The notes beneath the pieces are model-generated. The model was given only the letters and a program-made list of their open reading frames with translations. It ran no database searches and was not told where the DNA came from. DNA of 64,000 nucleotides from Patescibacteria group bacterium. GTDB lineage: Bacteria > Patescibacteriota > Microgenomatia > UBA8517. Positions 480 to 34,380 of this stretch are shown here, piece by piece; position 1 is the first letter of the stretch; each line of letters opens with the position of its first letter. The stretch spans positions 27,522 to 91,521 of the forward strand of contig JBBTWD010000016.1 of assembly GCA_038062915.1 (NCBI GenBank), in the 5' to 3' direction. Position numbers and translations under genes: made by a program.

Positions 480-1591
480 ATAACTCCCCAGAGGTTAACA
501 ACTACTCCAATAAAAAGTAGTATCCAATGATATTTTTTCAAACCCACTTTCTCGATGCCTTTAATGGTCAAAAGTGTCAAGAATGGATAAAAATCGACTG
601 CATACCTATAACCAAACTGGGTCCAACCTGTTCCACCTCTTAATGCAACTAGTATAAAGATCAAAATGACGGCTAGCCACAGCATCTTTGTGAGATTTTC
701 TTTAATTGGTGACCAAAACGCAAAAATGAAAACCGGGGTAGTTATCCAAATGGCAAGTCCGTACCACGAGGGTTGAATATATGGTGGGTGATTAAAAAAG
801 TTAGGAAGTTTTAGGAAGAGTATTTTTAAATGTTCTGGAATATAGGCGATATTTAGCATACCCTTAGAAAACCAGGGTTCAGAATAAATCCCAGGTATTA
901 GGAAGTATCCCTTATCTAAAACTGTCCCAAATCTTATAAAATTGTAGTAAAAATTAAACAATACAAAAGGAAGAATACCCAGTCCTAGATAAAAATATTT
1001 TTTAAACCAATCCTTATTAGCTAGTAGGTACAAAAACAAAGGAAGGGATAAAATTGTATGTAGACGTGATAAAAATGCGCTACCCAAAAAGATTCCAATG
1101 AGAAAAGAACGCCTTTTATTTAAACTTTCGTAAAGTGCAGCTGTAGTCAAAAAAGCGGCACTAACTTGCCCCAAATACCAAACCGAACCGGTTGCGGAAA
1201 GATACCAGACAATGCTTCCAAAGCCAATCATTATTCCAAAAAAAATAGCTAGTGGATAACTCTTTTTAAGTTTGTAAGAAATGGCCATTGTTAAAATAAT
1301 AATTCCAGCTCCCAAAATATGCGCTAGATATTGTTGTTCAAAGTTTTTTCCGAAGAAATAGACAAAAGGAAATGATAAAATTGCTGGCATAGGCGGCTGG
1401 ATTACATAGAACCTGCCTCCTGGCCCGGGAACCAGTTCAGATAACCAGTGGGGATTTTCACTTAGGTAGTATTTACCCTGCAGAAACGAACTGGAAAGTC
1501 GGGTAAAATAATCGTAAGGGGTTTTTCCTGCGGAAGTTAAATAATAAACAATGAGAGAAAAGACAAAAGCTAAAATAAAAAGTTTTTTCAT
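446..1591 (-). CDS. polytopic membrane protein, divergent paralog of the downstream GT-C glycosyltransferase
   Basis: 381 aa with many TM segments. N-terminus (MKKLFILAFVFSLIVYYLTSAGKTP) parallels the downstream gene N-terminus (MGKFLILAFILPLAIYLKTLLPGVGF) but lacks the D.GE/GHPxGYP signature. Confidence 0.45.
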   Translation of the reverse strand: MKKLFILAFVFSLIVYYLTSAGKTPYDYFTRLSSSFLQGKYYLSENPHWLSELVPGPGGRFYVIQPPMPAILSFPFVYFFGKNFEQQYLAHILGAGIIILTMAISYKLKKSYPLAIFFGIMIGFGSIVWYLSATGSVWYLGQVSAAFLTTAALYESLNKRRSFLIGIFLGSAFLSRLHTILSLPLFLYLLANKDWFKKYFYLGLGILPFVLFNFYYNFIRFGTVLDKGYFLIPGIYSEPWFSKGMLNIAYIPEHLKILFLKLPNFFNHPPYIQPSWYGLAIWITTPVFIFAFWSPIKENLTKMLWLAVILIFILVALRGGTGWTQFGYRYAVDFYPFLTLLTIKGIEKVGLKKYHWILLFIGVVVNLWGVIWINKFGWVSF

Positions 1592-3950
1592 ACATCCTAT
1601 TTTATACGTTTTATTCTTAGGATTAATAGTTAGACTTATTCTTTCGAATTTTGGAACCCTTCATCTTGATCAAGGGACTTTTACGGCGTGGAGCCGAATT
1701 CTTGCCGACGGAGGACTTAAGACTTTTTACAACGGTTGGAGTGACTACCTCCCGGGGTATTTATATGTTCTCTGGTTTTTGGGAAAAATAAATTTGCTGA
1801 ACATATTACCTCAAGTTGTTCTTTATAAACTTCCAGCAATTTTTGCCGACATATTTACTGGATACTTGATATATAAAATAGTCGGTAGAAAGTTTGGGAC
1901 ATTGGGTGCAAGTTTGTATATTTTTAATCCGGCAATTTTTGCCAATTCGACACTTTGGGGCCAAGTCGATTCGTTTACTATCCTATTTTCTTTGTTAGCT
2001 ATTTATTTACTACCCATACACTATCCGCTATCCGCCATTGCCTTGTCCGTAGGTACTCTTATTAAACCTCAAGCCGCATTCATAGCTCCACTTATCTTGA
2101 TAATGATGATTAGACACAAGTTTTCTCTAGCAAAAGTTTTAGCATTTATCTTTTTAGCATTTAGTATTTTTGTTCTCGCCTTTGTTCCTTTTTGGAACCA
2201 TGGAAATTTATTTGAGTTTATTTTTGGCCGTTTGACGGTCTCTGCAAATCAATATCCTTACACTGCCGTTAACGCATTTAATTTCTGGGGTCTTTTTGGT
2301 CAGTGGAAGCCAGATAATTTATATTTTCAATTTGGGGGTTATTTAATATTTTTGATCTCGTTTATTATTTTTGCAAAAAAAATAAAATCACAATATCTGC
2401 TTGCTGCCTTTTCTTTTTTGTTTTCTTTTTTGTTTTTTACTAGAATGCACGAAAGACACCTCCTCCCTGTTTTTGCCCCTTTGACAATACTTACAGCTAC
2501 CGAATCACTATACCTAATACCACTAGTTGGTCTCTCTTTTGCTTATATTTTAAATCTTCTCTACTCATATAGATGGATAACCAGTGATTTCTTGGTTTCA
2601 TTTGAGCCGTTTCCCGTAATAATTTTGAGTCTTGTTTCTTTCTTAATGCTCTTGTTTATTTCCCTGAAAACCAAAAATGTAAAAATACTGATTAATTCCC
2701 TGGTTAAATTCTTTAACAAAGGCAGGAAAGTTGTCCCCGAGAAGTTCCCCAAGTTTGCCATTCTACGTTCTACATCCTACTTGTTACTGTCCGTCATTCT
2801 TCTTTTTTCTTTTATATCACGAGTATATAAATTAAGTGAACCACCAAAAGATTATTTTGATGAGATTTATCACGCCTTCACCGCCCGTCTTGTTTTGCAT
2901 AATGACCCCAAGGCCTGGGAATGGTGGAATCCACATCCGGAAGGTTTTGCCTATGAGTGGACCCACCCGCCGCTTTCTAAATTAATGATGGCGGGGAGCA
3001 TGAAGATTCTTGGTGAAAATGCTTTTGGCTGGAGATTCCCGCAGGCGATTTTTGGAACGCTATCAATATTCATGATTTACCTTCTTTCCAAGAAAATATT
3101 TAACGACGAAATAATCAGTCTTTTATCCACGTTTATTTTCTCATTAGATGGGCTTTTTTTAGTGCTATCAAGAATGGCCATGAATGACGTCTATGTTTTA
3201 TTCTTCATGCTTTTAACGATTTATCTTTTTTTGAAAGAAAAAGATTTTTGGTCGGCGATTTCTTTGGGTCTTGCAATTGCTTCAAAATGGTCAGCCATTT
3301 GGGTAATTCCGATTTTATTTATCTTGTGGTTAAAACGTAAAAACAAATTCAAGCTTTCGACATTCTTGTTTTTTGGTCTATTACCTATTACTTGTTACAT
3401 ATTAACTTACCTACCTATGTTTTTAACCGGTCATGACTTGGGAACCTGGTGGGGGATGCAGAAACAGATGTGGTGGTACCATACTGGCCTACGTGCGACT
3501 CATCCATATACATCTGCCTGGTGGAGCTGGCCACTAATGACCCGGCCTGTTTACCTTTACACAAGCGATGAGGTGGGTGGCTTTGTCAGCAGAATCTATG
3601 CGATAGGAAACCCGCTTGTTTTTTGGTTTGGTTTAGTATCTATTTTTATGTCTTCAGTTTTTGCATATATTGAGCGAAATAGAAAACTTGGCTTAGTCGT
3701 GTTTGCATATTTAATCTTTTTTGTTCCGTGGGCAATCTCGCCTAGAATAATGTTTCTATATCATTATTTACCATCAATACCATTTTTGGCGATAGCCACG
3801 GGTTACATTCTTCGTCGAAACCCCAAGCTTGCTACATACTACATTCTACTTGCTACTGTTTTATTTGTTTACTTCTACCCTCACTGGGCAGGACTACAAA
3901 TTCCTCTTTGGCTAGACAAATCCTACTATTGGATGGAAAGCTGGAGATAA
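1551..3950 (+). CDS. large two-module GT-C membrane glycosyltransferase (PMT/GT39-like C-terminal module)
   Basis: 799 aa with about 20 predicted TM segments. The second half carries DEIYHAFTARL...WWNPHPEGFAYEWTHPPL, resembling the DE-motif loop of GT39/PMT mannosyltransferases. The first half is a separate GT-C-like module. Confidence 0.5.
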   Translation: MREKTKAKIKSFFIHPILYVLFLGLIVRLILSNFGTLHLDQGTFTAWSRILADGGLKTFYNGWSDYLPGYLYVLWFLGKINLLNILPQVVLYKLPAIFADIFTGYLIYKIVGRKFGTLGASLYIFNPAIFANSTLWGQVDSFTILFSLLAIYLLPIHYPLSAIALSVGTLIKPQAAFIAPLILIMMIRHKFSLAKVLAFIFLAFSIFVLAFVPFWNHGNLFEFIFGRLTVSANQYPYTAVNAFNFWGLFGQWKPDNLYFQFGGYLIFLISFIIFAKKIKSQYLLAAFSFLFSFLFFTRMHERHLLPVFAPLTILTATESLYLIPLVGLSFAYILNLLYSYRWITSDFLVSFEPFPVIILSLVSFLMLLFISLKTKNVKILINSLVKFFNKGRKVVPEKFPKFAILRSTSYLLLSVILLFSFISRVYKLSEPPKDYFDEIYHAFTARLVLHNDPKAWEWWNPHPEGFAYEWTHPPLSKLMMAGSMKILGENAFGWRFPQAIFGTLSIFMIYLLSKKIFNDEIISLLSTFIFSLDGLFLVLSRMAMNDVYVLFFMLLTIYLFLKEKDFWSAISLGLAIASKWSAIWVIPILFILWLKRKNKFKLSTFLFFGLLPITCYILTYLPMFLTGHDLGTWWGMQKQMWWYHTGLRATHPYTSAWWSWPLMTRPVYLYTSDEVGGFVSRIYAIGNPLVFWFGLVSIFMSSVFAYIERNRKLGLVVFAYLIFFVPWAISPRIMFLYHYLPSIPFLAIATGYILRRNPKLATYYILLATVLFVYFYPHWAGLQIPLWLDKSYYWMESWR

Positions 3951-3956
3951 GTTACC

Positions 3957-4361
3957 TTATTTTTCGCACTTGAGGATTCTGTCCCATCTTTTACATTGCT
4001 GATTGGTGAAACACCTCTTAAATCGTGTGGAGCATGAACCCCCTCCACAGGGATTATCCGCGTCACACTTGGTATGATTTCCGCCGCCACCCCCTCCGTC
4101 ATCGCTGGGTTCATAGCAACAAACAAGATCGCCTACACTACAGTCATCCGTCCTCCTTTTTTTATCTGGATGTCTACACTCAGGTTCAGACACACAATCG
4201 CCTCGTAATTGCAAACAAGTATCCCCCGCTGCTTTTTCTCGGATGTCTTGGGACTGCTTGACCAGAAGTACGCCGGCGACGATGGCGCCGACCAAAAAAA
4301 TAAGACTAACCAACTGCCAGGGCTTTTTATTTTCCCTTTTTCCTTTAAAAATTCTAAACAT
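3957..4361 (-). CDS. small membrane-anchored cysteine-rich extracytoplasmic protein
   Basis: 134 aa. N-terminal TM anchor, a poly-Gly stretch, and 15+ Cys in C..C spacing (CDADNPCGGGSCSTRFKRCFTNQQCKRW). Confidence 0.4.
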   Translation of the reverse strand: MFRIFKGKRENKKPWQLVSLIFLVGAIVAGVLLVKQSQDIREKAAGDTCLQLRGDCVSEPECRHPDKKRRTDDCSVGDLVCCYEPSDDGGGGGGNHTKCDADNPCGGGSCSTRFKRCFTNQQCKRWDRILKCEK

Positions 4362-4391
4362 GCTTACGTATAAACGCTATTACAAATTAAA

Positions 4392-4931
4392 TTAAATTGC
4401 AAGTAGCAGTGAGCCCATTATGACGAGTATTCCAAGTCCTGCTCCAAATACTGTTGGCCAGCTGGTTCCAGAGTTTGGAAGAGATGGCTGTGTTGGTGTT
4501 TGGGCCGAGGCACCAGCACATGTACAGTCAGTTTCTGCTACACACGAGGCGTTTCGGCAGAATCCCTGGTAGCAAATAAGATCACTCCCGCAGTTACTAT
4601 TGCTCCCACATGTTCCTCCGCAGGAATTTGGAGTACCGGGAGGTGAAGTTGGGGATTCAGTTGGCGTTGATGTTGCGGTACTGGTTGCCGTAGAAGTGGC
4701 GGTCGATGTTGCGGTTGCCGTGGCTGTAGCTGTAGCTGTTGATGTCGCACCAATCGTAAATGACAATGAGCAATTATTTGTTTCTGCAGCCCTTGGTTTA
4801 CTAGATGGTACATTTGGAGCCACCGGCTGTGCTCTCAATTGGTAAAGCCTGATAGCGGTAAAAATAGCAACTCCAGCTAGAACTAGAGTTATGATTATTA
4901 TTATTCCGGTTACAAATTTAGATTTTTTCAT
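4392..4931 (-). CDS. membrane-anchored protein with Thr/Ser/Ala-rich repeat linker and Cys-rich knot-like domain; C-terminal LPNSG + hydrophobic tail
   Basis: 179 aa. N-terminal TM, TATATATATSTATSTATSTATSTPTESPTSPP linker, CGGTCGSNSNCGSDLICYQGFCRNASC, and a C-terminus of SLPNSGTSW + 20 hydrophobic residues. Confidence 0.45.
   Translation of the reverse strand: MKKSKFVTGIIIIITLVLAGVAIFTAIRLYQLRAQPVAPNVPSSKPRAAETNNCSLSFTIGATSTATATATATATSTATSTATSTATSTPTESPTSPPGTPNSCGGTCGSNSNCGSDLICYQGFCRNASCVAETDCTCAGASAQTPTQPSLPNSGTSWPTVFGAGLGILVIMGSLLLAI
4660..4760 (-). repeat. short in-frame tandem codon repeats (GCxACx units) encoding the (T-A/S-T-A) linker
   Basis: Plus-strand gcggtNgccgtNgNtgtagctgt periodicity is visible directly. 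Confidence 0.7.
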
Positions 4932-4932
4932 A

Positions 4933-5796
4933 TTATTTCCATTGATTTAATATTTTAACTTGTGCTGAAATGTTAAATGTTGTTGTTCCTGCCGGAATTG
5001 TATAAAGATCACAAAATTCATTCTTGCCCCCGCCCGGCCTTTTACCTATCGTTTCCGGCCTTGTGGTTCCATTAACAGTGAACCTTGCGGCTGTAAATTG
5101 AACTCGATCTTGTGCTGGGGTAGTAGTTCCAGTTGCACAGAAATTAACTTGGTTATTAGCTTTGAGGCTAGAAAGCTGAGCTACACTTAGTTGCGTCCAT
5201 GTTGGAGAATAGGCTTTAATATTTTGACAACTAGCGGTGGGAGTGCCATCACCATCATTTACAACACATCTACCACACTTGTCACCAGAAAGAGGTATCC
5301 ATTTACATTTATCTGCCTTTTCTATAGTACATTCCCGTTCGGCAGTTGCGCAGTCTGTTGCCCCAGATTCAGAACAAGTTTCTTCGTATGCTTTTTCTGA
5401 AACACTTTGTTTTTGTTGGGTCAAGATTACTCCTCCGGCGATGCCGCCAATTAATAAAAATAATCCCAATATTGTTGCGATGATTTTTCCTCCGCCGAAT
5501 TTTTTCTTTGGTGGTGGGGAAACCATCATTGAGGACACGTCGTCTAGTGGTGCAGCTGTTCCACCACTTTCACTGGCGATTGGAGACTGGAGATTGGAGA
5601 CTGGCTGCGAGTCTTCAGTTGGCATAGATGAAATATCTGAAGTATCTGCCATTTGAAAGTCAGGGACAGTTATAACTGGATTATCGTCAACTGGGGGAAC
5701 TACCGGAGTTTGAACCGGATCTGTTTGAGTTGGGTCCAACTTCGCTGAAGCTCCGCTGGATAAATCAGATTGATTGGGCATGTTTATAGGTAACAA
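4933..5796 (-). CDS. bitopic protein: Pro/Ser-rich disordered N-terminal region, single TM, Cys-rich extracytoplasmic domain
   Basis: 287 aa. KKKFGGGKIIATILGLFLLIGGIAGGVIL TM at about residue 110. 14 Cys in the C-terminal half. Internal 12-bp tandem repeat (gattggagactg x2) at 5561-5590. Confidence 0.4.
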   Translation of the reverse strand: MLPINMPNQSDLSSGASAKLDPTQTDPVQTPVVPPVDDNPVITVPDFQMADTSDISSMPTEDSQPVSNLQSPIASESGGTAAPLDDVSSMMVSPPPKKKFGGGKIIATILGLFLLIGGIAGGVILTQQKQSVSEKAYEETCSESGATDCATAERECTIEKADKCKWIPLSGDKCGRCVVNDGDGTPTASCQNIKAYSPTWTQLSVAQLSSLKANNQVNFCATGTTTPAQDRVQFTAARFTVNGTTRPETIGKRPGGGKNEFCDLYTIPAGTTTFNISAQVKILNQWK

Positions 5797-7075
5797 AAGA
5801 CAGCGCCATAACGCCTATACCCAGAATAGAGAAAAGAATGGTCGGAGTCAAGTTACCAGTTTGAGGAATAGGCGCTGGGCTTGCAGTTACTTTTGGACTA
5901 GACGTTGGTTTAGCATTTGACGAGGCGGTGGGAGTTGGGGTTGCAGTTGTGGTCTCTCCAGAACCAGATGCCTCAAAGGCCGGAGCTTCACCCGCTTGAA
6001 CAACAAAATTTCTAGTTAGTTTTCTGGTTATTCCGGTTATATCTTTCCAGGAAATAGTAATTTTATGAACTCCAGGACTTAAATTTTCCGGTGGATTCCA
6101 ATTCCAAGATCCGGCAGTGCCAATAGTGACGGATGCTGTTATGGGATTTTCAGACTCGACAGTTATTGTTAATATAGTTCCTTTTGGCCCGTCACCAAAA
6201 AATTCTGGTTCGGTGCTAGTTACCACCTCTCCATCATCTAAACTCTCAAGGGTTACACTTTGAGCTGGTCCAGAAACGGGGACATTGTCGGCTACGGCGA
6301 ACTTGGATTTTTCTTCTGAATTTTCAGGAAGATCGACTTCGGCATTAGGTGTTCCTCCAGATGTTGATATTGGAAGGCTTCGAAAATCATGTGTTTGCCC
6401 AAGTACCATGGGTGGGGCGGGTTTAGCAGATTGTGGAAAAATTTGAGCGGTTGAAACATCCCCAGTTCCTGTCTCCACAAAAATTTCAACTAAGGTTTGC
6501 GCCTCGTTGATTTCTAGCAAGTTTTTTAAATCTTGAGTTCTTGTAGCCCCTAACTGAAAAACATAATTGCCGGTAGGAGAGGTTAATGTTGAGAGTATAT
6601 ATCCTTGAATATTTGCATAAACTAAGGCATTTTTGATTGTTTCCCCAGTTGAACTTATTACCGATCCTGATATAAGCACAGAATTTTCGCTAACATTTAA
6701 AGCAGATCCTGTTTTTGTTTTCCAGGGAATCCCATTGTTGTCAAACAGTATTCCTCCTGAATTTATTTTATAGGAGTATTCAGTTTCAGCCTTAAGATCG
6801 TTTAGTGCCACACTGTGAGTGAAAGACTTTTTGCTATCTTGAACCAATTTGTTTTGACCCCAAAGCACAAACCCGACAGACTCCTTGTCTGTAACCCAAG
6901 AGATTGTCAGACTAGTATCTGAAATATTAGAAACCCGTATATTTTTAGGCATTGCCTCTCCGGATGCTCCTAATCTAAAAATAGCTCTCGAATTAACTAA
7001 TATAACTCCAAAAAGTGTTCCAACAATTAAAACTATTAGTCCGAGTATTGTTGGAAGTTTATTTTTTTTAATCAT
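5765..7075 (-). CDS. surface protein with N-terminal signal-anchor, fibronectin type III-like domain, Ig-like/beta-sandwich region, Thr/Pro/Ser-rich stalk and C-terminal IPQTG sorting-signal-like motif
   Basis: The ORF track starts at a TTG at 7093, but the ATG at 7075-7073 (MIKKNKLPTILGLIVLIVG) is the likely start. IRVSNISDTSLTISWVT...YSYKI resembles FN3. The C-terminus is PIPQTGN-LTPTILFSILGIGVMALSFV-TYKHAQSI (motif + TM + basic tail). Confidence 0.5.
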   Translation of the reverse strand: MIKKNKLPTILGLIVLIVGTLFGVILVNSRAIFRLGASGEAMPKNIRVSNISDTSLTISWVTDKESVGFVLWGQNKLVQDSKKSFTHSVALNDLKAETEYSYKINSGGILFDNNGIPWKTKTGSALNVSENSVLISGSVISSTGETIKNALVYANIQGYILSTLTSPTGNYVFQLGATRTQDLKNLLEINEAQTLVEIFVETGTGDVSTAQIFPQSAKPAPPMVLGQTHDFRSLPISTSGGTPNAEVDLPENSEEKSKFAVADNVPVSGPAQSVTLESLDDGEVVTSTEPEFFGDGPKGTILTITVESENPITASVTIGTAGSWNWNPPENLSPGVHKITISWKDITGITRKLTRNFVVQAGEAPAFEASGSGETTTATPTPTASSNAKPTSSPKVTASPAPIPQTGNLTPTILFSILGIGVMALSFVTYKHAQSI

Positions 7076-7140
7076 AAGCGTAGCTTGTGACAAACTTTGT
7101 TTATCATAAGCGTAGCTTGTGACAAACTTTGTTTATCATG
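7071..7140. repeat. perfect 32-bp tandem direct repeat x2 plus 6-bp partial third copy
   Basis: atcataagcgtagcttgtgacaaactttgttt occurs at 7071-7102 and 7103-7134, then atcatg. The first copy overlaps the ATG (read on minus strand) of the FN3 gene. Confidence 0.9.
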
Positions 7141-7145
7141 AAATG

Positions 7146-7340
7146 TTACTCATTTCTATTTTGAATATCTCTAATAATATCTTGATCTAGGAATGGCACC
7201 AATGGTTTTGAGATTTCATCAGGTACCACCAAAGATGGTTTTACGACAACTGCTCGGTAAACGCTTAAAGATATCCACATAATTGCAGTTAGGGTTGTCA
7301 AAATTAAAATTGTAACAATGTTAGGAATTTTGTTTTTCAC
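7146..7340 (-). CDS. small single-TM protein (pilus-assembly associated?)
   Basis: 64 aa. N-terminal TM. Positioned between the pilO-like gene and the FN3 gene in the same operon. Confidence 0.3.
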   Translation of the reverse strand: MKNKIPNIVTILILTTLTAIMWISLSVYRAVVVKPSLVVPDEISKPLVPFLDQDIIRDIQNRNE

Positions 7341-7990
7341 TGGATAAACGGTAACCTGCCTGAAATTATAGCTACAATAATATTTCCACTTTCGGACGTA
7401 GTTGTATTAATTCCAAAGGCATCAATTTTTATCGGACGGCGCAAGTTTTCTAAGTCGCGGGCTGTAGAAATTATTCCCTGATAATTTCCACTAATACTAA
7501 TTGAAACAGTCATTTCTTTTGATCCTGTAGATAATGGTTTTAAACCAGCTTCCTTCTTCTTGGCCTGATCATCTTTTCCCAAAAGTATTATTTCTCCTAC
7601 AGATACACCCAAGACTTGAACGGCGTTTTTGCTTGCGACAGCTTGTATCTGCCCAACAAAAATTTCTGGCTGTGGTTGATTGGGGACGGCCAGGTCTACC
7701 AGTGGAATAACCCCTGAATTTTCAGAATAAAGACTGCTTGCGGTATCTAGATTTGCAATTTTCTGATCAAGTAAAGAAATAGTTTTTTCTTTCTCATTGA
7801 CTTCTTTAACCAAGGAGATAATGGTCAGGGCGGTAGGTTTTAGGGCAAATAAACCAAATATGGTTATTGTAATTAGGGAAAGAATAACTTCCAAAAACAT
7901 CTTGAGGTCACGGCGCTGTTTGTAAAGCACCACGACATTTAAAAAATACTCTTTGTACCGTAAATATTGTCCTCGCCATCCAAGTGCCAT
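7337..7990 (-). CDS. pilO: PilO-like type IV pilus assembly protein
   Basis: 217 aa. Basic N-terminus, one TM, coiled-coil, then a globular domain. Immediately follows the PilN-like gene with a 1-bp gap. Confidence 0.4.
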   Translation of the reverse strand: MALGWRGQYLRYKEYFLNVVVLYKQRRDLKMFLEVILSLITITIFGLFALKPTALTIISLVKEVNEKEKTISLLDQKIANLDTASSLYSENSGVIPLVDLAVPNQPQPEIFVGQIQAVASKNAVQVLGVSVGEIILLGKDDQAKKKEAGLKPLSTGSKEMTVSISISGNYQGIISTARDLENLRRPIKIDAFGINTTTSESGNIIVAIISGRLPFIQ

Positions 7991-7991
7991 A

Positions 7992-8531
7992 TTATTTTAT
8001 TAAAAGCTTGATATTAAAGACTGTTAGTGACGGATTATTTTCTGATGAATTTAGTTGACCGAGAGATATGTCTTTAAATGCGGCATCGGCGTTTAGATTG
8101 GAAATAAATTGAGCAATTCCCATTTCACTTCCAGCAACTCCTTTGATTTGGGCTGAAGTTTCCTGAAATGATATCGACTGAAGGCTAACCTCACCGGGTA
8201 CCTTGGCAACGATTTTAGCTATAGTATCGGAAGGTTTTTTCTCTTTTGATAGATCTTTAAAAATTTGGAGTTTTGCTTGTAAAGTTCTAAAACTTTTTTC
8301 AAAATCACTTTGGGCTTTTATTTGGGCAGTCTTAATTTGTAGTTGATCGTTTAGATCAGAGTTTTGAGCATCTAACCAAAATCGGGAAAGAAATGCTCCC
8401 ATAACTACCATTTCGGTGATTATTACAATATACCTAAAAGATGTCATTGCCCAACGAAGCAATCTCCCTAGCGTTGAAGCCTCAAATTCTTCTTGAGGAA
8501 GTAGATTGATTAACTTTTTTTTGGTAGCCAT
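7992..8531 (-). CDS. pilN: PilN-like type IV pilus assembly protein
   Basis: 179 aa. N-terminal INLLP signature (MATKKKLINLLPQEEF), single TM, coiled-coil. Confidence 0.55.
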   Translation of the reverse strand: MATKKKLINLLPQEEFEASTLGRLLRWAMTSFRYIVIITEMVVMGAFLSRFWLDAQNSDLNDQLQIKTAQIKAQSDFEKSFRTLQAKLQIFKDLSKEKKPSDTIAKIVAKVPGEVSLQSISFQETSAQIKGVAGSEMGIAQFISNLNADAAFKDISLGQLNSSENNPSLTVFNIKLLIK

Positions 8532-8546
8532 GCTACTTTCAATATA

Positions 8547-8795
8547 CTATTTTGATTTTGTTTTTGGAAGAAGCTTTGACAAAGCGCTTTTAATCCTGGC
8601 GGATTTATTTTTGTGGATAACTTTCTTTTTTGTGGCCCTGTCAGCCAATGAAGTTGCTTTGAATATCGAGTCTAGACTCTTAAGTTTTCTAGCTTTTCTT
8701 AAGGCCACTTCAAGCTTTGAAATGATAATTTTATTAACACTAGTTTTTTTATGGGAGCTTCTCAAGGCTCTTTTGGCTGTTTTAGTAACCGGCAT
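8547..8795 (-). CDS. rpsT: 30S ribosomal protein S20
   Basis: MPVTKTAKRALRSSHKKTSVNK... internal Met of the 95-aa ORF is the conserved bS20 start. Confidence 0.75.
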   Translation of the reverse strand: MPVTKTAKRALRSSHKKTSVNKIIISKLEVALRKARKLKSLDSIFKATSLADRATKKKVIHKNKSARIKSALSKLLPKTKSK

Positions 8796-8814
8796 CCCAA
8801 TAGTATAATCGACC

Positions 8815-10476
8815 TTGATAATGAAATCAATCAAAAACCTATTTAATTCACAACAAAAGACTGTTCTTTCCGCCGCGACAATTATTATGTTTATGGTTGT
8901 TGCCAGTCGAATCCTGGGTCTTGTTCGTCAAAGAGTTTTGGCAAGTTTTTTTACGCCAGATGAACTTTCACTTTTCTTTGCCGCGTTTCGCTTACCCGAT
9001 TTGGTTTTTGAGGTATTAGTTTTTGGGACCTTTTCAGCCGCATTTATCCCAGTTTTTACAGGACTTATCAAAAAAAACAAAAATGAGGCTTGGAAGGTGG
9101 CTACAACAGTTGTCAATATTGGATTTTTAGTTTTTTTAATTTTGGCAGGATTTTTAATCTTTTTTTCATCTCATCTTTATGGTGTTTTAGCTCCTGGATT
9201 CACAAATGGACAACAAGTAACAATAGTAAGGCTTACTAGAATTCTGTTTGCGGCCCAAGGCTTTTTTGTTATTAGTTACGTTTTAACTGCAGTTTTAGAA
9301 TCATCACGGCGTTTTTTAATTCCTGCGGTCGCTCCACTTTTTTATAACCTAGGAATCATTTTTGGTACACTAATTTTTGCTCCCAAGTTTCATCTTATGG
9401 CCCCAGTCATCGGGGTTATAGTGGGCTCTGCTCTGCATCTTTTAATTCAACTCCCCCTTTCTTTAAAACTTGGTTTCAGATTTAGGTCAAAAATTTCCAT
9501 TGATGATAATGTAAGAAAAATTGGAAGACTTGCACTCCCCAGAATTATTGAAGTTTCAGTGATTCAGGTTATGAAAACGGTCGAGCTTTTTTTGGCTTCA
9601 TTAATTTCAACTGCTTCATATACTTATTTTACTCTAGGCAACACCATTCAACTTATTCCAGTTGGACTTTTTGGGACATCGATAGCCAAAGCATCTCTAC
9701 CCACACTATCAAGACAGGTGGGCCAGCCAGGCGTTTTCAGGAAAACACTTTTTGATGCTCTATATCAGATGGTTTTTTTAATTTTGCCAGTTTCGGCCAC
9801 ATTGATAGTTTTAAGAATCCCCATAGTAAGGCTTATTTTTGGGACAGATATGTTTGATTGGGAAGCAACGGTCCAAACCGGAATGGTTGTTTCGGCATTC
9901 GCCGTTGGAGTTATCTTCCAAGCTGGTGCAAGTCTACTTTCAAGGGCATTTTATGCCATGCACGATACAAAGACTCCCGTTATTATTTCTATAATCTCAT
10001 TAATTATTAATATTAGCTTGGCATTTATTTTTGTCAAAGTTTTTAGTCTTCCCTCTTGGTCTCTGGCACTTGCCTACTCTATCGGAGTTTTTATACAAGG
10101 CGCCACTCTTTTTATAGTAATCAATAATCGTCTTAAAAATGGTCCGATTTGGAAACTTCTTTCCCCACTTTTTAAATCAGTATTTTCATCCGTAGTTTCA
10201 GGTGTCGTGATGTATTTTATGCTCAAGTTTTTTGATAGATGGGTTTGGATAAAAAATTCGCCGGCCAATCTTCCTTTTGAGAGGTTTGTTTTGGATACAA
10301 GATATGCCGGAAACCTTTTGGCATTAACCATGTTGGTAATTTTATCGGGCGCCTTGGCTTACTTTTTAACTTCTTATTTACTAAAATCTCAAGAATTAAC
10401 TAATTTTTTAAACTTGTTTAAACGATTTTTTATTTCAAGAAAAATAGAACCCATTTCAGACCTTGACAAGGGTTAG
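8815..10476 (+). CDS. murJ: lipid II flippase MurJ (MviN)
   Basis: 553 aa with 14 TM segments. ILGLVRQRVLASFFT N-terminal motif. Confidence 0.8.
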   Translation: MIMKSIKNLFNSQQKTVLSAATIIMFMVVASRILGLVRQRVLASFFTPDELSLFFAAFRLPDLVFEVLVFGTFSAAFIPVFTGLIKKNKNEAWKVATTVVNIGFLVFLILAGFLIFFSSHLYGVLAPGFTNGQQVTIVRLTRILFAAQGFFVISYVLTAVLESSRRFLIPAVAPLFYNLGIIFGTLIFAPKFHLMAPVIGVIVGSALHLLIQLPLSLKLGFRFRSKISIDDNVRKIGRLALPRIIEVSVIQVMKTVELFLASLISTASYTYFTLGNTIQLIPVGLFGTSIAKASLPTLSRQVGQPGVFRKTLFDALYQMVFLILPVSATLIVLRIPIVRLIFGTDMFDWEATVQTGMVVSAFAVGVIFQAGASLLSRAFYAMHDTKTPVIISIISLIINISLAFIFVKVFSLPSWSLALAYSIGVFIQGATLFIVINNRLKNGPIWKLLSPLFKSVFSSVVSGVVMYFMLKFFDRWVWIKNSPANLPFERFVLDTRYAGNLLALTMLVILSGALAYFLTSYLLKSQELTNFLNLFKRFFISRKIEPISDLDKG

Positions 10477-21448: not shown

Positions 21449-22498
21449 ATGTTTAATCCTAAATTTGCCATTACCAACAAACTCCTTTCAAATATTAAAG
21501 AAATAGGATCAATTATCACCGAACTTAACAATAGGAAATTTTCTAACCTAGTTCTGGTGGAAATGGAAAGGCTTGCTCGCGAAATCTCTTCGCATGCCTC
21601 AACTAGTATTGAAGGTAATCCACTACCATTAACCGATGTTAAACGACTGATTAAAACTGACCCGAAAAATATTCGTGATAGTGAAAAAGAAGTCCTAAAT
21701 TATAATAACGTCTTAAAACAAATAAACAAAAATCTTAAAAACAATAACATTCATTTTTCCCTAGATTTGATCTTAAAGATACAAAAAGGAGTTGTTGATG
21801 ATCTGCTACCAGATTACGACACAGGGGTGTTACGAAAGCGGCCAGTGTTTGTAAATAACCCGTCATTAAGAAAGGTAGTTTATCTACCTCCAGATCATTC
21901 TAATGTCCCCCTATTAATAGATGAACTGATTATGTTTATAAAAAGCAAGAGTGATGAAATAGACCCAATAATATTGGCGGGAATATTTCATAAACAATTT
22001 GTTTTAATCCATCCGTTTATAGATGGAAATGGAAGAACGACAAGACTACTCACAAAGATTTTACTTGCGGAAATGGGTCTGAATACTTTTAATTTGTTTA
22101 GTTTTGAAAATTATTACAATAAAAATGTAACAAGATATTTTGAATTTGTTGGAGAAATTGGTAATTACTATGAATTAAGTAAAAATGTTGATTTTACGAA
22201 GTGGCTTGAATATTTTACCGATGGAATTATTGATGAACTTTTAAGGGTTAAAAAGATACTTAGTATTCAAGTTGATCCTAAAAATGTAGTTTATAGTCAT
22301 GACCAAAAGGTGTTGGATTTTGTTGAAAAAAACGGATTTATTAAAAATAGTGATTACGCCAAGTTAATTAAGCGCTCAAAAGCTATGCGAGTAATCAATC
22401 TTAATAGACTAATTGAAATGGGTTTAATTGAGCGGAAAGGAAAAGGTAAGGCAACTTTTTATGTTTTAAAAAAGACTTTGGGAGATAAATTTCACTAA
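21449..22498 (+). CDS. Fic/DOC family protein (AMPylation-type active site) with C-terminal winged-helix region
   Basis: HPFIDGNGRTTR matches the Fic motif HxFx(D/E)GNGRxxR. 349 aa. Confidence 0.8.
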   Translation: MFNPKFAITNKLLSNIKEIGSIITELNNRKFSNLVLVEMERLAREISSHASTSIEGNPLPLTDVKRLIKTDPKNIRDSEKEVLNYNNVLKQINKNLKNNNIHFSLDLILKIQKGVVDDLLPDYDTGVLRKRPVFVNNPSLRKVVYLPPDHSNVPLLIDELIMFIKSKSDEIDPIILAGIFHKQFVLIHPFIDGNGRTTRLLTKILLAEMGLNTFNLFSFENYYNKNVTRYFEFVGEIGNYYELSKNVDFTKWLEYFTDGIIDELLRVKKILSIQVDPKNVVYSHDQKVLDFVEKNGFIKNSDYAKLIKRSKAMRVINLNRLIEMGLIERKGKGKATFYVLKKTLGDKFH

Positions 22499-29918: not shown

Positions 29919-31685
29919 ATGGTTACGACAAATGAAGTTCGAGAAAAATATTTAAAATTTTTTGAAAAAAGGGGTCACAAAGTTATTCCCGCCTCCCCAC
30001 TTGTTTTAGAAAATGATCCTACGACCCTTTTTACTTCAAGCGGTATGCAACAAATGATTCCATATCTTAAAGGTGAAAAACATCCGTTGGGTAAAAGGTT
30101 GGTTGACTCGCAGCCCTCAATTAGAATGCAGGATCTTGATGAGGTGGCAGACAACAGACATTATTCTTTTTTCGAGATGCTTGGCAATTGGTCTCTGGGT
30201 GACTATTTTAAGAAAGAACAACTTGACTGGATTTGGGAATTTTACACAAAAGAATTGGGACTGGATAAAAAGAGATTATATGTTTCAATATTTGCTGGGA
30301 ACAATGATGTTCCAAAAGACACAGAAAGTTACGAGATTTGGAAAAGTCTGGGGGTAGAAGAGGGCCATATCCACTTCTATGGTGCCAAAAAGAACTGGTG
30401 GAGTATAAGTGGGCTCCCAGACAAAATGCCAGCAGGTGAAATCGGCGGACCAGATAGTGAAATTTTTTTTGAATTCGATTCAGTCGAACACAATACAAAA
30501 TTTGGTCAAGAATGTCACCCCAACTGTGACTGTGGAAAATTTCTTGAGATAGGCAATTCAGTTTTTATACAGTTCAAAAAAGAAGCGGATGGAACCTTGT
30601 CTGAACTGCCACAAAAAAATGTCGATTTTGGGGGAGGTTTAGAAAGAATCACGGCCGCGGTCAATAACGATCCTGATACATTTCATATTGATTCGTTTTC
30701 AGAAATAATCAAAAAAATAGAAGAAGAGGTTGGTATAAAATATAATTCAGATTCCAAAAAAGACAAAAATTTTAGAATAATCGCGGACCATATTCGTGCT
30801 TCGACGAGTTTATTAAAAGAGGGGATTCTACCGGCCAATAAATTACATGGTTATGCATTACGAAGACTGATTCGTCGCGCAATGTTTCATTTACACTTAC
30901 TTGGAGGGGGAGTTTCTGGAACAACTTTGGCCCATATTGCAGGAGACCCAGAAGGTGCAAAAGAAGGATTTATAGAAGAAGGTAAAAGATTTGCTGATGC
31001 CTTAAAGCGCGGACTTAAAAAATTAATCAATATTGTTTCAAATGATACCAAAGTTGATGGAAAAGTAGCCTTTGATTTATACCAAACAGGTGGCTTTCCA
31101 CTTGAACTTACACTTGAAATTCTTTCCCAGAATGAAATGACTTTTAATGAAGGCGCAAAAGAAGAATTTAAAAAAGAGTTTGAAAAACACAAAAATTTAA
31201 GTAGAACAACTTCAGCTGGAATATTTAAAGGTGGGTTGTCTGATAAATCTGATAAAACGGTTACAAAACTTCATACGGCAACACACCTACTTCATGCTGC
31301 ACTTCGAGAAATTATAGGTAGTCATGTCTCACAGAAAGGAAGCCATATAACTGCCGAAAGATTACGCTTTGATTTTTCTCATCAAAATAAACTTAGCGAT
31401 GAGGAAAAAACCGAAGTTGAAAATTTAATAAATAAAAAAATTAAAGAAAACTTACCAGTTTCTTTTAAAGAAACAAGTCTTGATGATGCGATTGTCCAAG
31501 GTGCATTACATTTTTTTGCTGAAAAATACGGAAAAGATGTTAAGGTCTACTCAATCGGTGATTTTTCAAAAGAAGTTTGTGGTGGCCCGCATGTGGGGAA
31601 CACCAGTGAGGTTGGTCGTGTTAAGATTATCAAACAGGAGAAAATTGGCGCGGGAGTTATTAGAATCTACGCTAGCTTACAATGA
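29919..31685 (+). CDS. alaS: alanyl-tRNA synthetase, short form lacking C-Ala domain
   Basis: Catalytic-core motifs (FFEMLGNWSLGDYFK) and editing-domain motifs (HTATHLLHAAL, CGGPHV). 588 aa. Confidence 0.85.
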   Translation: MVTTNEVREKYLKFFEKRGHKVIPASPLVLENDPTTLFTSSGMQQMIPYLKGEKHPLGKRLVDSQPSIRMQDLDEVADNRHYSFFEMLGNWSLGDYFKKEQLDWIWEFYTKELGLDKKRLYVSIFAGNNDVPKDTESYEIWKSLGVEEGHIHFYGAKKNWWSISGLPDKMPAGEIGGPDSEIFFEFDSVEHNTKFGQECHPNCDCGKFLEIGNSVFIQFKKEADGTLSELPQKNVDFGGGLERITAAVNNDPDTFHIDSFSEIIKKIEEEVGIKYNSDSKKDKNFRIIADHIRASTSLLKEGILPANKLHGYALRRLIRRAMFHLHLLGGGVSGTTLAHIAGDPEGAKEGFIEEGKRFADALKRGLKKLINIVSNDTKVDGKVAFDLYQTGGFPLELTLEILSQNEMTFNEGAKEEFKKEFEKHKNLSRTTSAGIFKGGLSDKSDKTVTKLHTATHLLHAALREIIGSHVSQKGSHITAERLRFDFSHQNKLSDEEKTEVENLINKKIKENLPVSFKETSLDDAIVQGALHFFAEKYGKDVKVYSIGDFSKEVCGGPHVGNTSEVGRVKIIKQEKIGAGVIRIYASLQ

Positions 31686-33691
31686 AAATGAATTTGAAAG
31701 ACTTTTTTGCCCAAAAAGAAAAACCGCCGGAAACGTATTGGTCATTGGTTCTTGAACCTGGTTGGGTACAGGCTGGTATTTGGCACATAACGGACAGTGT
31801 GGCTCAGGTGATAACAAGTAGTCCCGCAACGCCCTGGGAAGCTAACGATGAACTTATAGGGGCAATCGATACTGCACTTTCTTCCGCTGTTCAAAAACTT
31901 CCAGAAGGAGCTTCTGAACCCACAAAAACTGTTTTTGGGGTAAGTAGCAATTGGATAAAAGATGGAGAAATCGGTAGTGAATATCTAGAAAAAATTAAAA
32001 AGGTTTGTGAAGATCTTTCCTTAACCCCAACCGGCTTTGTAGTACTCCCCGAGGCAATCGCCCATTATTACAAATCTATTGAGGGGGTACCTATCAACTC
32101 TATAATTTTAGGTCTTGGTAAGAATTTTTTGGAGGTTTCTGTTTTTTCGTTGGGAAATTTAGTTGGAACATCAAGTGTTGCAAGGAGCGTTTCTTTAGCT
32201 GACGACGTGGTCGAGGGTTTATCAAGGTTTGAGGGGGCAAGCCCTCTTCCTTCTAGGATAATTATATTTAATGGTCGGGGTGGCGAACTTGAAGAAGCAA
32301 GAGATACCCTTTCCGGGGTTGCCTGGGATCAAAATACAAAAATCCAATTTTTACACACACCTAAGGTTGAAATTTTAGAATCCGACAAAAAAGTCCTTGC
32401 CACATCACTAGCTGGAGCGGCTGAAATTGGTCAGGCTTCAGCGATATCTAATGTTTCTGAAGTTTCAGCCACTACCTCACTTGCGAATCTTGGATTTTCT
32501 GTCGGGAAAGATGTTTCAGAGGAGGTTTTGCCACCCCCACCATCTCCTGTAGTCCAAAAGCCTGAACTTTACCTAACAAAACTAAAAAGTTTCTTTACTG
32601 GCAAAAAATTCACACCCCTTATAGTTATTTTTGGGGTTTTTATATTTGGTTTAATATTTTTTTGGTGGTTTTATCCTAAAGCCACAGTATCGATCTATGT
32701 TTCTCCTCAAAAGTTTGAGGAAGAGTTTGATATTTCATTTGATGTCAACGAAATTAATAAAGTAAGCGTTTCAGGAGAAAAAACTAAATCCGCAACCGGA
32801 ACGAAATTAATTGGAGAAAAAGCTAAAGGTGTCGTGAGTTTGAGAAATGGCACAGATTCTCCTATAAACTTTCCAGCTAGCACGGTTTTGGTGTCTTCGG
32901 GGGACTTAAGATTTAGTTTAAACGAAACCGCTTCGGTTTCTGCCGCAATTGACGCTGATAATCCGGGAACTGCCGGGGCCAATGTGACTGCTCTCGACCT
33001 TGGGTCGGCTTACAATTTAGCTAAAGATGAAGTTTTTAAGGTTGGCAATTATCCTAAGGCGGATGCTTATGCAAAATCTACTTTGGATTTTTCAGGCGGG
33101 TCAAGTAGGGAGATTTCAGCTGTAAACATAGAAGATCGAGAAAAACTCTTAAACGAATTAACAAACGAACTTTCCGATAAAGCTAGGGGGGAATTTTTGG
33201 TAAAAACTAATAATGATCAAGTTTTTGTTAATTCGTTTGCTGTTTTTGAAATAGATAAACAATCTTTTAGTCACAAGATTGGGGATGAGGCGGATACTCT
33301 AAAACTAGATCTATCCATGATCGCTACTGGAGTTATTACAAATAAGCAACGTTTGGCTGACTTTGTTAGGGAAAAATTAAAAGACAAAATTCCCCAGGGA
33401 TTTGTTTTAAGAGATACACAAGTGGATTATAAATTTGAATTTATAGATGCTGATGGGGAAAAATATAATTATAAAATGACTACAACCGTTAATTTTTTAC
33501 CAGAGATCAAAACAGAGGAAATAATCAAAAAGATCACTGGTAAGTTGCCTCAACTGGTTGAAGAGTATCTTTCATCAACTCCCGGTTTTTCTCGAGCCGA
33601 AATTCGCGTCACCCCTCTCCTTTTTGGTAAATTTGCAACTTTACCAAGGGTAGCTAAAAACATTACCATAGAGGTCGTAGCGGAAAAATGA
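31682..33691 (+). CDS. membrane protein: N-terminal actin-fold ATPase-like (PilM/FtsA-like) cytoplasmic domain, one TM, large extracytoplasmic domain
   Basis: 669 aa. LVLEPGWVQAGIW, LPEAIAHYY and IILGLGKNFLEVSVF are consistent with an ASKHA/PilM-FtsA fold. TM at about residue 315. Confidence 0.4.
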   Translation: MKMNLKDFFAQKEKPPETYWSLVLEPGWVQAGIWHITDSVAQVITSSPATPWEANDELIGAIDTALSSAVQKLPEGASEPTKTVFGVSSNWIKDGEIGSEYLEKIKKVCEDLSLTPTGFVVLPEAIAHYYKSIEGVPINSIILGLGKNFLEVSVFSLGNLVGTSSVARSVSLADDVVEGLSRFEGASPLPSRIIIFNGRGGELEEARDTLSGVAWDQNTKIQFLHTPKVEILESDKKVLATSLAGAAEIGQASAISNVSEVSATTSLANLGFSVGKDVSEEVLPPPPSPVVQKPELYLTKLKSFFTGKKFTPLIVIFGVFIFGLIFFWWFYPKATVSIYVSPQKFEEEFDISFDVNEINKVSVSGEKTKSATGTKLIGEKAKGVVSLRNGTDSPINFPASTVLVSSGDLRFSLNETASVSAAIDADNPGTAGANVTALDLGSAYNLAKDEVFKVGNYPKADAYAKSTLDFSGGSSREISAVNIEDREKLLNELTNELSDKARGEFLVKTNNDQVFVNSFAVFEIDKQSFSHKIGDEADTLKLDLSMIATGVITNKQRLADFVREKLKDKIPQGFVLRDTQVDYKFEFIDADGEKYNYKMTTTVNFLPEIKTEEIIKKITGKLPQLVEEYLSSTPGFSRAEIRVTPLLFGKFATLPRVAKNITIEVVAEK

Positions 33692-34380
33692 CTCAAAAAA
33701 TAATTCTTCGAATAGCAGCAGCAGTATCAGGGATATCTGGAACAATCATCCTAATTGGAGTGTTTTATCCAATTGTTTCATATAATAATACCTATTCTCA
33801 AAAATATCCAAATTTAATTTCACCCATCTCCGAAAAAAAACCAGTTAATATTGAAGAAGTAGATTATACCCAGGCAAGCAATTGGTTTACAGGAGGAGCA
33901 AAAAAAGAAGATTTTATTTCGAGTAAGGTTGAATATTACACGATTTCTATTCCAAAATTGAAGATCGAAAATGCAACAGTTGCCATAGGGGGGAATGATT
34001 TAAGTCAACACATTATTCAATATCCCGGGACAGCCCTACCCGGGAAGCGTGGTAACTCTGTCCTTTTTGGTCATTCGATCTTGCCCATTTTTTATAACCC
34101 TAAAGATTATCTATCGATTTTTTCTCTTTTACCGAGTTTAAAAATAGGAAACGAAATTTTTATTGAATATGACGGTGTTTCATATAAATACAGAGTTGAG
34201 AATATGTTCGAAGTTTTGCCTACCGATATTCAAGTTTTGGAGCAGGATGATTCTGATTCATTTTTATCTCTTGTAACCTGTGTTCCTCCGGGTGACCCCA
34301 GGAAACCAAAAAGGCTAATAGTCAGGGCAAGGGTGGTTCCACCAGAAGAACTTACATACAATGAAAATTCTAGCAATTGA
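33688..34380 (+). CDS. sortase family transpeptidase
   Basis: N-terminal TM anchor. His in VLFGHS, Cys in SLVTCVPPG (TLxTC-type) and a downstream conserved Arg (RLIVRARV). Confidence 0.6.
   Translation: MTQKIILRIAAAVSGISGTIILIGVFYPIVSYNNTYSQKYPNLISPISEKKPVNIEEVDYTQASNWFTGGAKKEDFISSKVEYYTISIPKLKIENATVAIGGNDLSQHIIQYPGTALPGKRGNSVLFGHSILPIFYNPKDYLSIFSLLPSLKIGNEIFIEYDGVSYKYRVENMFEVLPTDIQVLEQDDSDSFLSLVTCVPPGDPRKPKRLIVRARVVPPEELTYNENSSN

Follow-up and report, generated by a model that had tools for sequence, protein, structure and literature searches.

What do three small, cysteine-rich membrane proteins do when they are encoded side by side next to a putative protein O-mannosyltransferase (PMT) gene in a bacterium of the candidate phyla radiation (CPR)? 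The question is raised by a 64-kb stretch of contig JBBTWD010000016.1 from a Patescibacteria group bacterium, an uncultured, ultra-small member of the Woesebacteria. In this stretch, referred to here as the window, the genes lie on the minus strand as open reading frames (ORFs) p134 (134 aa, positions 3957-4361), p179 (179 aa, 4392-4931), and p282 (282 aa, 4933-5781). Members of the CPR/Patescibacteria spend their lives attached to other cells. This way of life is determined at their surface, yet nearly all of their envelope proteins carry the annotation "hypothetical." The explanation that we favor, with modest confidence, is that the locus encodes Sec-exported, O-mannosylated, and sortase-anchored surface proteins of an operon linked to pilN and pilO, in which p282 and p179 are perhaps joined by a disulfide bond.

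Cysteine accounts for 30 of the 600 residues of the three products (5.0%) versus 69 of 19,787 residues (0.35%) in the window's 72 remaining ORFs, and hydrophobic segments, defined as 19-residue Kyte-Doolittle windows scoring above 1.6, were found in all three. The preliminary description of this DNA as coding for three membrane-associated, cysteine-rich proteins was thus confirmed with respect to the ORFs, their transmembrane (TM) segments, and their cysteine content. For the third gene, the reported Pro/Ser-rich segment and TM segment were also found, but the reported 287-aa start (longest ORF, 4933-5796) was corrected. The likely start is ATG 5781 (MPNQSD...), in agreement with MEK7550600.1 and with the conserved N termini of 34 homologs. 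On the conservation data presented below, p134, p179, and p282 are predicted to be real, conserved membrane or surface proteins with extracytoplasmic cysteine-rich parts.

Conserved operon context

One genome per species was scanned, which gave 52 loci in approximately 50 species, from metagenome-assembled genomes of Woesebacteria, Microgenomates, and Patescibacteria. By tblastn, the same block was found almost everywhere, namely, MurJ, then PilN-PilO-p64-p442-(variable)-p282-p179, and then PMT-GT381, where GT381 denotes the 381-aa glycosyltransferase described below. Of 53 loci compared, 42 hold all five operon genes, and the genes were in this order in 40 of these, and the p179 homologs (50 orthologs) adjoined a p282 homolog in approximately 50 loci. 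From this synteny, p282 and p179 are deduced to lie at the distal end of a conserved envelope operon of Woesebacteria/Microgenomates, pilN-pilO-p64-p442-p282-p179. Co-transcription is suggested by the gene spacing, as the p442 and p282 genes share 17 nt, a single nucleotide separates p282 from p179, and 30 nt lie between p179 and p134. Promoter and terminator scans at the locus were at chance level and spoke neither for nor against it.

The upstream genes of the operon are also on the minus strand. The product of the first gene, PilN (7992-8531), matched PF05137 (E = 2.2e-10; 40.9 bits versus a cut-off of 22.8) and is a bitopic protein whose sequence reads MATKKKLINLLPQ. Its N-terminal INLLP motif is presumably the PilM-binding motif known from PilM-PilN structures. 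The PilO-like bitopic protein (7337-7990) gave a weak match to PF04350, below the cut-off (E = 0.012), in a slot after pilN that is conserved. It is followed by p64 (7146-7340), a small bitopic protein present in 47 loci, and by p442 (5765-7075, with the start placed at ATG 7075 from its homologs), a cysteine-free surface protein. From the N terminus, p442 comprises a TM helix, an fn3/PurAcPhosph_N domain, a CarboxypepD_reg domain, a Big_13 Ig-like domain, a T/S/P/A linker, and IPQTG followed by a TM segment and KHAQSI.

In the intergenic region between p64 and p442, a 32-bp unit, ATGATAAACAAAGTTTGTCACAAGCTACGCTT, is repeated in tandem (2.4 copies, 95% identity, 7064-7139). The repeat extends into the likely start of p442 and appears to have arisen recently by duplication of the sequence immediately upstream of ATG 7075. 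Insertions of approximately 2 kb were seen between p442 and p282 in five loci (L002, L003, L020, L038, and L050). Those in L002, L003, L020, and L050 hold two unrelated genes, one for a cysteine-free bitopic protein of approximately 325 aa and one for a protein of approximately 210 to 250 aa with HGAIxxRE in its C-terminal half, and only the latter was found in L038. This junction of the operon tolerates cargo.

p179 and its eight-cysteine module

From the N terminus onward, p179 consists of a conserved TM helix (4830-4916) followed by an invariant P-x2-P-x-S-x-P-x-A motif, an invariant unpaired cysteine, C54, within CSLSFTI (4752-4772), a T/S/A/P linker (residues 60 to 101; 4629-4754), the 8-Cys module CGGTCGSNSNCGSDLICYQGFCRNASCVAETDCTC (4518-4622), the pentapeptide LPNSG (4467-4481), and a C-terminal TM segment ending in LLLAI (4395-4460). 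The hydrophobic segments span residues 6 to 24 and 161 to 179, the second of which was absent from the preliminary description. The (TA)n/(STAT)n linker described earlier was found again, with 90% S/T/A/P and 57% S+T, and Tandem Repeats Finder detected period-6 and period-24 arrays at 4696-4741 in this region.

Comparison of the orthologs separated invariant from variable parts. Along one face of the N-terminal helix, the residues do not vary (T15, L18, A19, A22, T25, A26, L29, Y30, and R33), and the invariant single cysteine lies in C-x-[LA]-x-F-x-[LIV]. The middle region is hypervariable. The T/A/P/S linker varies greatly in length, the 8-Cys module is present in zero to three copies, and cargo is swapped among VWA domains, DUF11 domains, and none, so that extra cargo domains are sometimes present. 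In the simple forms, the total cysteine count equals 1+8n (1, 9, 17, or 25). Two other roles considered for p179 were rejected. C54 is not a lipobox cysteine, as the preceding residues do not fit [LVI][ASTVI][GAS] and it lies about 20 residues past the hydrophobic core, and the Lys of SSKPKA is not that of a sortase pilin motif, as it is not conserved (SQPAA, SIPHA, and SEPEA elsewhere).

The consensus of the module was C-N-x2-C-x2-N-x2-C-x2-G-L-x-C-x2-G-x-C-R-N-P-x-C-x3-T-D-C-x-C. An exhaustive HMMER search (45-residue query, E ≤ 1e-3) found it in at least 327 protein clusters at 50% identity, with one to five copies per protein; an earlier word-index search with the p179 module had given two proteins. 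Among the proteins that carry it are some with DUF11, VWA, cohesin, or DsbA-like domains, others with a canonical LPKTG...KFRLI signal, and one from Kerfeldbacteria. The module is usually located between T/P linkers close to the C-terminal anchor and therefore behaves as a generic stalk element. One carrier, P0092, a metagenomic protein of unknown taxon, combines a membrane-anchored DsbA-like thioredoxin domain (PF13462, E = 1e-19, CPFC) with the 8-Cys module and a C-terminal TM segment, and at least one module-carrying organism therefore also encodes an extracytoplasmic disulfide oxidoreductase.

A profile built from 51 modules was compared to the PDB and matched the Dumpy DPY module 1OIG (E = 0.0026, spanning 22 of the 39 positions) and the N terminus of kiwellin (E = 0.0028). 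Like DPY (PF21164, 1OIG), DUF7107, and the kiwellin "kissper," the module has a core of C-x5-C-x5-C-x4-C with G/S-L-x-C-x2-G-x-C-R; unlike them, it has eight cysteines over about 35 residues, with C-x3-C added at the N terminus and C-x5-C-x-C at the C terminus. DPY modules form stiff extracellular fibers. No Pfam model exceeded its threshold on the module. DPY gave E = 1.5 in the p179 homolog of locus L001 and 19.1 bits in protein P0058 versus a cut-off of 27, and homology to DPY, DUF7107, or kiwellin is therefore not established. AlphaFold2 (AF2), run on an alignment of three sequences only, modeled the cysteine module with a predicted local distance difference test (pLDDT) score of 40 to 54 and drew a hairpin at LICY-QG-FCRN; the low score reflects the shallow input and does not speak against a fold.

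p282

The only TM segment of p282 covers residues 100 to 118. Residues 1 to 92 form an acidic, Pro/Ser-rich tail (5506-5781) with 16% P, 24% S+T, 13 acidic residues, and 2 basic residues, followed by KKKFGGGK and the TM segment (5422-5505), a variable cysteine-rich region with six cysteines (5266-5376), and a conserved beta-sandwich at the C terminus (4936-5235), which has the invariant unpaired C185 (5227-5229) at its start. As the tail has no hydrophobic segment and lies on the lysine-rich side of the TM segment, it is deduced from the positive-inside rule to be cytoplasmic, and p282 is predicted to be a type II bitopic membrane protein with its N terminus inside. The AF2 model of p282 contained the beta-sandwich at residues ~180 to 282 with pLDDT above 90, while Foldseek against the PDB returned only generic beta-sandwich matches, none with E below 0.01.

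The C-terminal part has 46 homologs, mostly labeled Woesebacteria. In this family the N-terminal tail is variable, acidic, and Pro-rich with the short conserved motifs MPxxN, LPPxP, and GSAAPxD, and the near-invariant TM segment, PKKKFGGGKIIATILGLFLLVGG, is followed by QxQxIxEKA and a hypervariable cysteine-rich stretch. The same type of anchor, a lysine-rich segment, a TM segment, and [VL]xQxQxI[RK]E[KR]A, recurs in p134 (4224-4316) and in proteins P0055, P0082, P0102, and P0108. No Pfam or NCBIfam model was found for this anchor, which is common to otherwise unrelated CPR surface proteins and may serve specifically as a signal for sorting or processing.

Predicted anchoring of p179 and p442

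Sorting-signal-like C termini were found in only two ORFs of the window, p179 and p442. In p179, LPNSG is followed by 22 hydrophobic residues, and its homologs share LP-x-[SAV]-G-(T)-x-W-P-T, also seen as LP[QDNE][SA]G(T)xWPT, and a TM segment ending in LLLA[LIF]. The motif is present in approximately 45 loci, with no change at L, P, or G in an alignment of 19 homologs. The p442 homologs end in [IVL]Px[TS]G, a TM segment, and a charged tail. The window also encodes a sortase (33688-34380, plus strand) that matched PF04203 (E = 5e-22) and TIGR01076 (46.8 bits versus a cut-off of 39.35) and has H...LSLVTC...R motifs; it is a candidate enzyme for both the LPNSG and the IPQTG signals. The start of this gene is overlapped by 4 nt by a 669-aa ORF (31682-33691, plus strand) with only a weak Baseplate_J match (E = 0.003), which may encode a sortase-associated protein.

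Several observations weigh against sortase anchoring of p179. The sortase gene lies 29 kb from the operon, and no class A to F model reached its own cut-off on the product. The p179 motif has S, A, or V in place of T at position 4, and neither p179 nor any of its homologs has a K/R tail after the C-terminal TM segment, whereas p442 has KHAQSI. Furthermore, the N-terminal helix and the P-x2-P-x-S-x-P-x-A motif show much stronger conservation than a normal cleaved signal peptide would, which hints that the ends of p179 are functional membrane elements and not disposable signals. These data would fit a p179 that is anchored in the membrane twice and is not processed by sortase, LPxxG-WPT being a structural turn and not a cleavage site. 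The N- and C-terminal helices would then pack against the TM helices of p282, p442, PilN, and PilO. This is the alternative that survives best, supported by the invariant helix face, by a C-terminal TM segment conserved beyond mere hydrophobicity, and by the lack of a charged tail behind it. It was nevertheless deemed unlikely because the core L-P-x-x-G is invariant as in sortase signals, because p442 of the same operon has a canonical PxTG, TM segment, and lysine tail with a sortase present in the window, and because unrelated proteins with the 8-Cys module end in canonical LPKTG...KFRLI.

Glycosyltransferase neighbors and probable O-mannosylation

The gene convergent with p134 (1551-3950, plus strand; PF02366, PF13231, and PF16192) encodes a fused GT-C protein of 799 aa, with 6 nt between its stop codon and that of p134. 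Its N-terminal half is weakly Mannosyl_trans4-like GT-C, and its C-terminal half is a GT39 PMT in which FDEIYH (the DE motif) aligns with FDEVHF of the solved PMT 9i5k. Two further genes were found beyond it on the minus strand. The first (446-1591) encodes a putative 381-aa membrane glycosyltransferase whose NCBIfam match to the LA_3751/LA_3752 family (E = 9.5e-07) stays under the curated cut-off, and the second (3-479), which runs past the window edge, encodes the N-terminal part of a TMEM260-like protein O-mannosyltransferase (PF11028, E = 6e-20). The three adjacent GT-C-type genes form a cluster, and matches to the PMT and GT381 recur in many related loci.

A convergent PMT gene was located within 2.5 kb downstream of the p179 homolog in 32 of the 42 evaluable loci. 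The linker of p442 (residues 376 to 412) is extracytoplasmic and consists of 76% S/T/A/P, and from composition and gene context the T/S/A/P linkers of p179 and p442 are probably O-mannosylated. Two points count against this assignment. The PMT adjacency was missing in 10 of the 42 loci, and where present it may in part be inherited synteny, as MurJ on the opposite flank is conserved to the same degree. The earlier suggestion that the linkers of these proteins are O-glycosylation substrates gains comparative support for p179, from the adjacent intact PMT, and not for p282. The Pro/Ser segment of p282 is N-terminal to its only TM segment, on the cytoplasmic side, and is thus out of the reach of an extracytoplasmic PMT.

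Unpaired cysteines in p282 and p179

The cysteine counts of the two families were examined for parity. An odd number was found in all 34 aligned p282 homologs. Within these, the variable stretch always held an even number (4 to 16), and the two sandwich cysteines in NFC and DFC were present or absent together, which leaves C185, at the first strand, unpaired. The count was also odd in 49 of the 50 p179 orthologs, the exception looking like a mis-called N-terminal extension. Among module-bearing representatives (n = 150), odd counts were obtained for 37 of 37 with a p179-type anchor versus 26 of 109 of the rest, and the odd parity is therefore specific to the p179 family and not to the module. 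For p179-type proteins taken together, the figure was 86 of 87. PilN, PilO, p64, and p442 are essentially cysteine free.

The genes for p282- and p179-like proteins are duplicated as adjacent pairs in loci L018, L032, and L048, and hybrids with neither the sandwich nor the CxLxF motif contain an even number of cysteines (L051 and L052). In the p179-type protein P0147, a p282-like sandwich (hmmsearch, E = 2e-10) starts 13 residues after CSLSFTI and is followed by C-T-K-T-F-T-I. From these comparisons we propose, speculatively, that p282 and p179 may be joined by an intermolecular C185-C54 disulfide that forms a membrane-to-wall bridge. One p282-like paralog with 38 cysteines (L052) breaks the odd-cysteine rule, and homodimers or free reactive cysteines would explain the parity equally well, the case for a heterodimer being built on parity together with gene adjacency. 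The parity rule nonetheless provides a specific hypothesis of a covalent two-protein complex. If it is true, p282 would be the membrane-rooted partner with a cytoplasmic signaling or docking tail, and p179 would be the sortase-linked partner that displays swappable cargo. Both the unpaired-cysteine signature and the paired duplication of the p282 and p179 genes are new here.

Proposed arrangement at the cell surface

Under the favored explanation of glycosylated, wall-anchored surface proteins, p179 would be exported via Sec, and the adjacent PMT would O-mannosylate its Thr/Ser/Ala/Pro linker during or after translocation, by analogy with actinobacterial PMT substrates. The 8-Cys module, with four disulfides, would serve as a rigid stalk element, and the sortase would cut p179 at LPNSG and attach it to peptidoglycan. 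p282 would remain in the membrane, with its acidic, Pro-rich tail directed towards a cytoplasmic partner and its cysteine-rich region and beta-sandwich directed outward. In a more speculative step, p282 C185 and p179 C54 would form the intermolecular disulfide.

The position behind pilN and pilO raises a further possibility, which we consider doubtful, marginally more so than the double anchoring of p179. In this alternative, p64, p442, p282, and p179 would be an envelope-spanning type IV pilus accessory that occupies the slots held by pilP and pilQ after pilMNO of diderms. It would take the form of a wall-anchored, beta-sandwich-rich collar or connector from the PilN/PilO platform to the peptidoglycan or S-layer and as such would be compatible with the favored explanation. 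The four genes are always behind pilN-pilO in the same order, PilN has INLLP, each of the six products is bitopic, the TM helices being conserved, and PilP is likewise a membrane-tethered beta-sandwich protein. On the other hand, neither sequence nor fold comparison gave a match to PilP or PilQ, and the pilB, pilC, pilM, pilT, and pilin genes are not adjacent, the rest of the window being housekeeping. The hypervariable middle of p179, with its swapped cargo domains, would also be unusual for a machine part. One of the genes among the housekeeping set encodes a Fic/DOC-domain protein (21449-22498, plus strand; PF02661, E = 2.5e-17).

A type IV pilin or pseudopilin identity was rejected for the proteins themselves, as the N termini of p64, p442, p282, p179, and p134 have no class III signal (G|F/M-T-L-x-E) and a Gly before the N-terminal helix is not conserved. 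The most specific combination of these ideas, that a disulfide-linked, O-mannosylated p282-p179 heterodimer together with p64 and p442 is the monoderm CPR counterpart of PilP/PilQ, is regarded as improbable as a whole on the sequence data. If true, it would bridge the PilN/PilO platform and the wall in an undescribed architecture of sortase, PMT, and type IV pilus components.

p134 and the case for released effectors

Like p282, p134 has an N-terminal hydrophobic segment (residues 16 to 35; 16 to 34 by hydropathy) followed by QSQDIREKA, the same type of anchor. The remainder consists of two six-cysteine blocks (residues 49 to 82 and 99 to 132) separated by a Gly-rich linker, for a total of 12 cysteines, an even number. 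Only two cluster homologs, P0052 and P0053, were found in a search of 5.8 billion proteins. Both pass DUF7107 (PF23416; 26.4 and 41.4 bits, respectively, versus a cut-off of 24.6), whereas the p134 of the window does not. The two homologs occupy the same slot in loci L054 to L057, in the order p282-like, p179-like, and p134-like followed by the convergent PMT. When p134 was used for tblastn in the related loci, the matches covered only the TM anchor of p282-type proteins. From this distribution, p134 is deduced to be a rare, lineage-specific accessory gene of the close clade of the window. As p134 is confined to this clade and p282 and p179 are widespread, the trio is clade limited, and p282 plus p179 are the ancient unit. 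The preliminary idea of a coherent trio next to a PMT in related genomes was thus not substantiated, p134 being absent from that position in the 53 related loci and having only two homologs.

A quite different role, that of released knottin- or defensin-like effectors against a host cell, had also been suggested and would be most tenable for p134 if its N-terminal segment were a cleaved signal peptide. p134 is small, has 12 cysteines and no C-terminal anchor, and is clade specific, as accessory effectors often are, and the profile of the p179 module gave weak matches to knottin-type inhibitors (E = 0.03 to 1). However, no family was found for p134, p179, or p282 in Pfam (E ≤ 0.1) or NCBIfam, including any knottin or defensin family, and the knottin/defensin idea was therefore dropped; the module itself has eight cysteines, and the knottin-type PDB chains matched only at E above 0.03. 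The 20-residue hydrophobic segment of p134 with QxQxIREKA, as in the bitopic p282, looks like a signal anchor. Since p179 is held at both ends and p282 is bitopic, the data fit surface display and not release, and the module is a membrane- or wall-proximal stalk in many unrelated surface proteins. An effector role is accordingly given little credence.

Coding status and composition

Purifying selection was evident for all three genes in comparison with locus L054 (pN of 0.14 to 0.31 and pS of 0.66 to 0.84, the latter saturated; pN, 0.27, and pS, 0.84, for p134), where pN and pS are the proportions of nonsynonymous and synonymous differences. With this signal and with homologs present, the genes are neither unique to this genome nor free of selection, the result that would have told against the preliminary description. 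The GC content is 0.45 over 4001-6000 versus approximately 0.38 elsewhere, and the rise coincides with the three genes and is attributed to their Thr, Ala, Pro, Gly, and Cys codons. The syntenic orthologs argue against recent horizontal transfer. That the genes are spurious or decaying ORFs in a low-complexity, GC-richer stretch, as the GC rise and the opposite-strand mis-calls of the TA-repeat region by gene callers in related contigs might suggest, is already refuted by orthologs in approximately 50 species with invariant cysteine frameworks, by pN far below pS, by a confident AF2 domain, and by a codon usage that accounts for the GC rise.

In the public gene calls of related contigs, short spurious genes were placed on the opposite strand in the TA/TP repeats, and the p179 homolog was truncated or missed. 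Examples are L001 (9775-9987), where P0005 is called with 63 aa instead of 185, and L054 (6258-6792), with three small minus-strand calls. The exact 179-aa sequence of p179 had no match in the protein collection searched. An Rfam scan of 3500-9000 gave no match.

Significance and comparison with known systems

The locus provides Woesebacteria with a defined and widely conserved surface-protein gene set. It also provides three handles for annotation for which no Pfam or NCBIfam model was found, namely, the 8-Cys stalk module, the p179-type display scaffold (conserved anchor, unpaired cysteine, variable cargo, and LPxxG), and the p282-type beta-sandwich. Should the link to pilN and pilO prove functional, it would be relevant to the passage of type IV pili through the wall of these monoderm, ultra-small cells. 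Literature searches on CPR or Woesebacteria with sortase, PMT, or cysteine-rich proteins gave no description of this operon.

Such disulfide-rich proteins had been described as unusual for CPR, a view at variance with the number of clusters that carry the module and with the published record. CPR Peregrinibacteria encode large, cysteine-rich extracellular proteins (~1,655 aa) that resemble Myxococcus Cys-rich repeats, together with a sortase, one disulfide-bond protein, type IV pili, and many mannosyltransferase-like genes (PMC4736985). Unlike those, the proteins described here are small, have a modular build with a different module, and form part of a defined operon.

The actinobacterial PMTs of family GT39, e.g., Streptomyces Pmt/Ppm1, O-mannosylate Sec-exported proteins with Ser/Thr/Pro/Ala-rich linkers (PMC5882110). 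The present PMT is of the same family and has the catalytic FDE motif, and the putative substrate regions are extracytoplasmic and of the same composition type. It differs in its CPR host, in its fusion to an extra GT-C half, and in its clustering with a TMEM260-like gene, and its substrates are assigned from adjacency only. In Actinomyces oris, GspA, studied by Wu et al. in 2014, is reportedly a glycosylated sortase substrate, for which an LCP enzyme instead of a PMT is reported to be needed in glycosylation. The concept of a glycosylated surface protein anchored by a housekeeping sortase is shared with GspA, with no sequence relationship.

The closest parallel in design is found in Streptococcus mutans, where Cnm and WapA are LPxTG surface proteins whose Thr-rich regions are modified by the adjacent pgf operon, including PMT_2-family proteins, and are thereby protected from proteolysis (PMC5856776). 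An N-terminal secretion signal, a Thr-rich region, a C-terminal LPxTG-type signal, and adjacent PMT-family genes are common to both systems. The S. mutans Pgf machinery combines the GT-A enzyme PgfS with PMT_2-like proteins, whereas here a GT39 PMT with a DE motif is fused to a second GT-C half. Unlike Cnm and WapA, the CPR proteins carry 8-Cys modules and an unpaired cysteine, have a partner gene, and are placed behind pilN and pilO.

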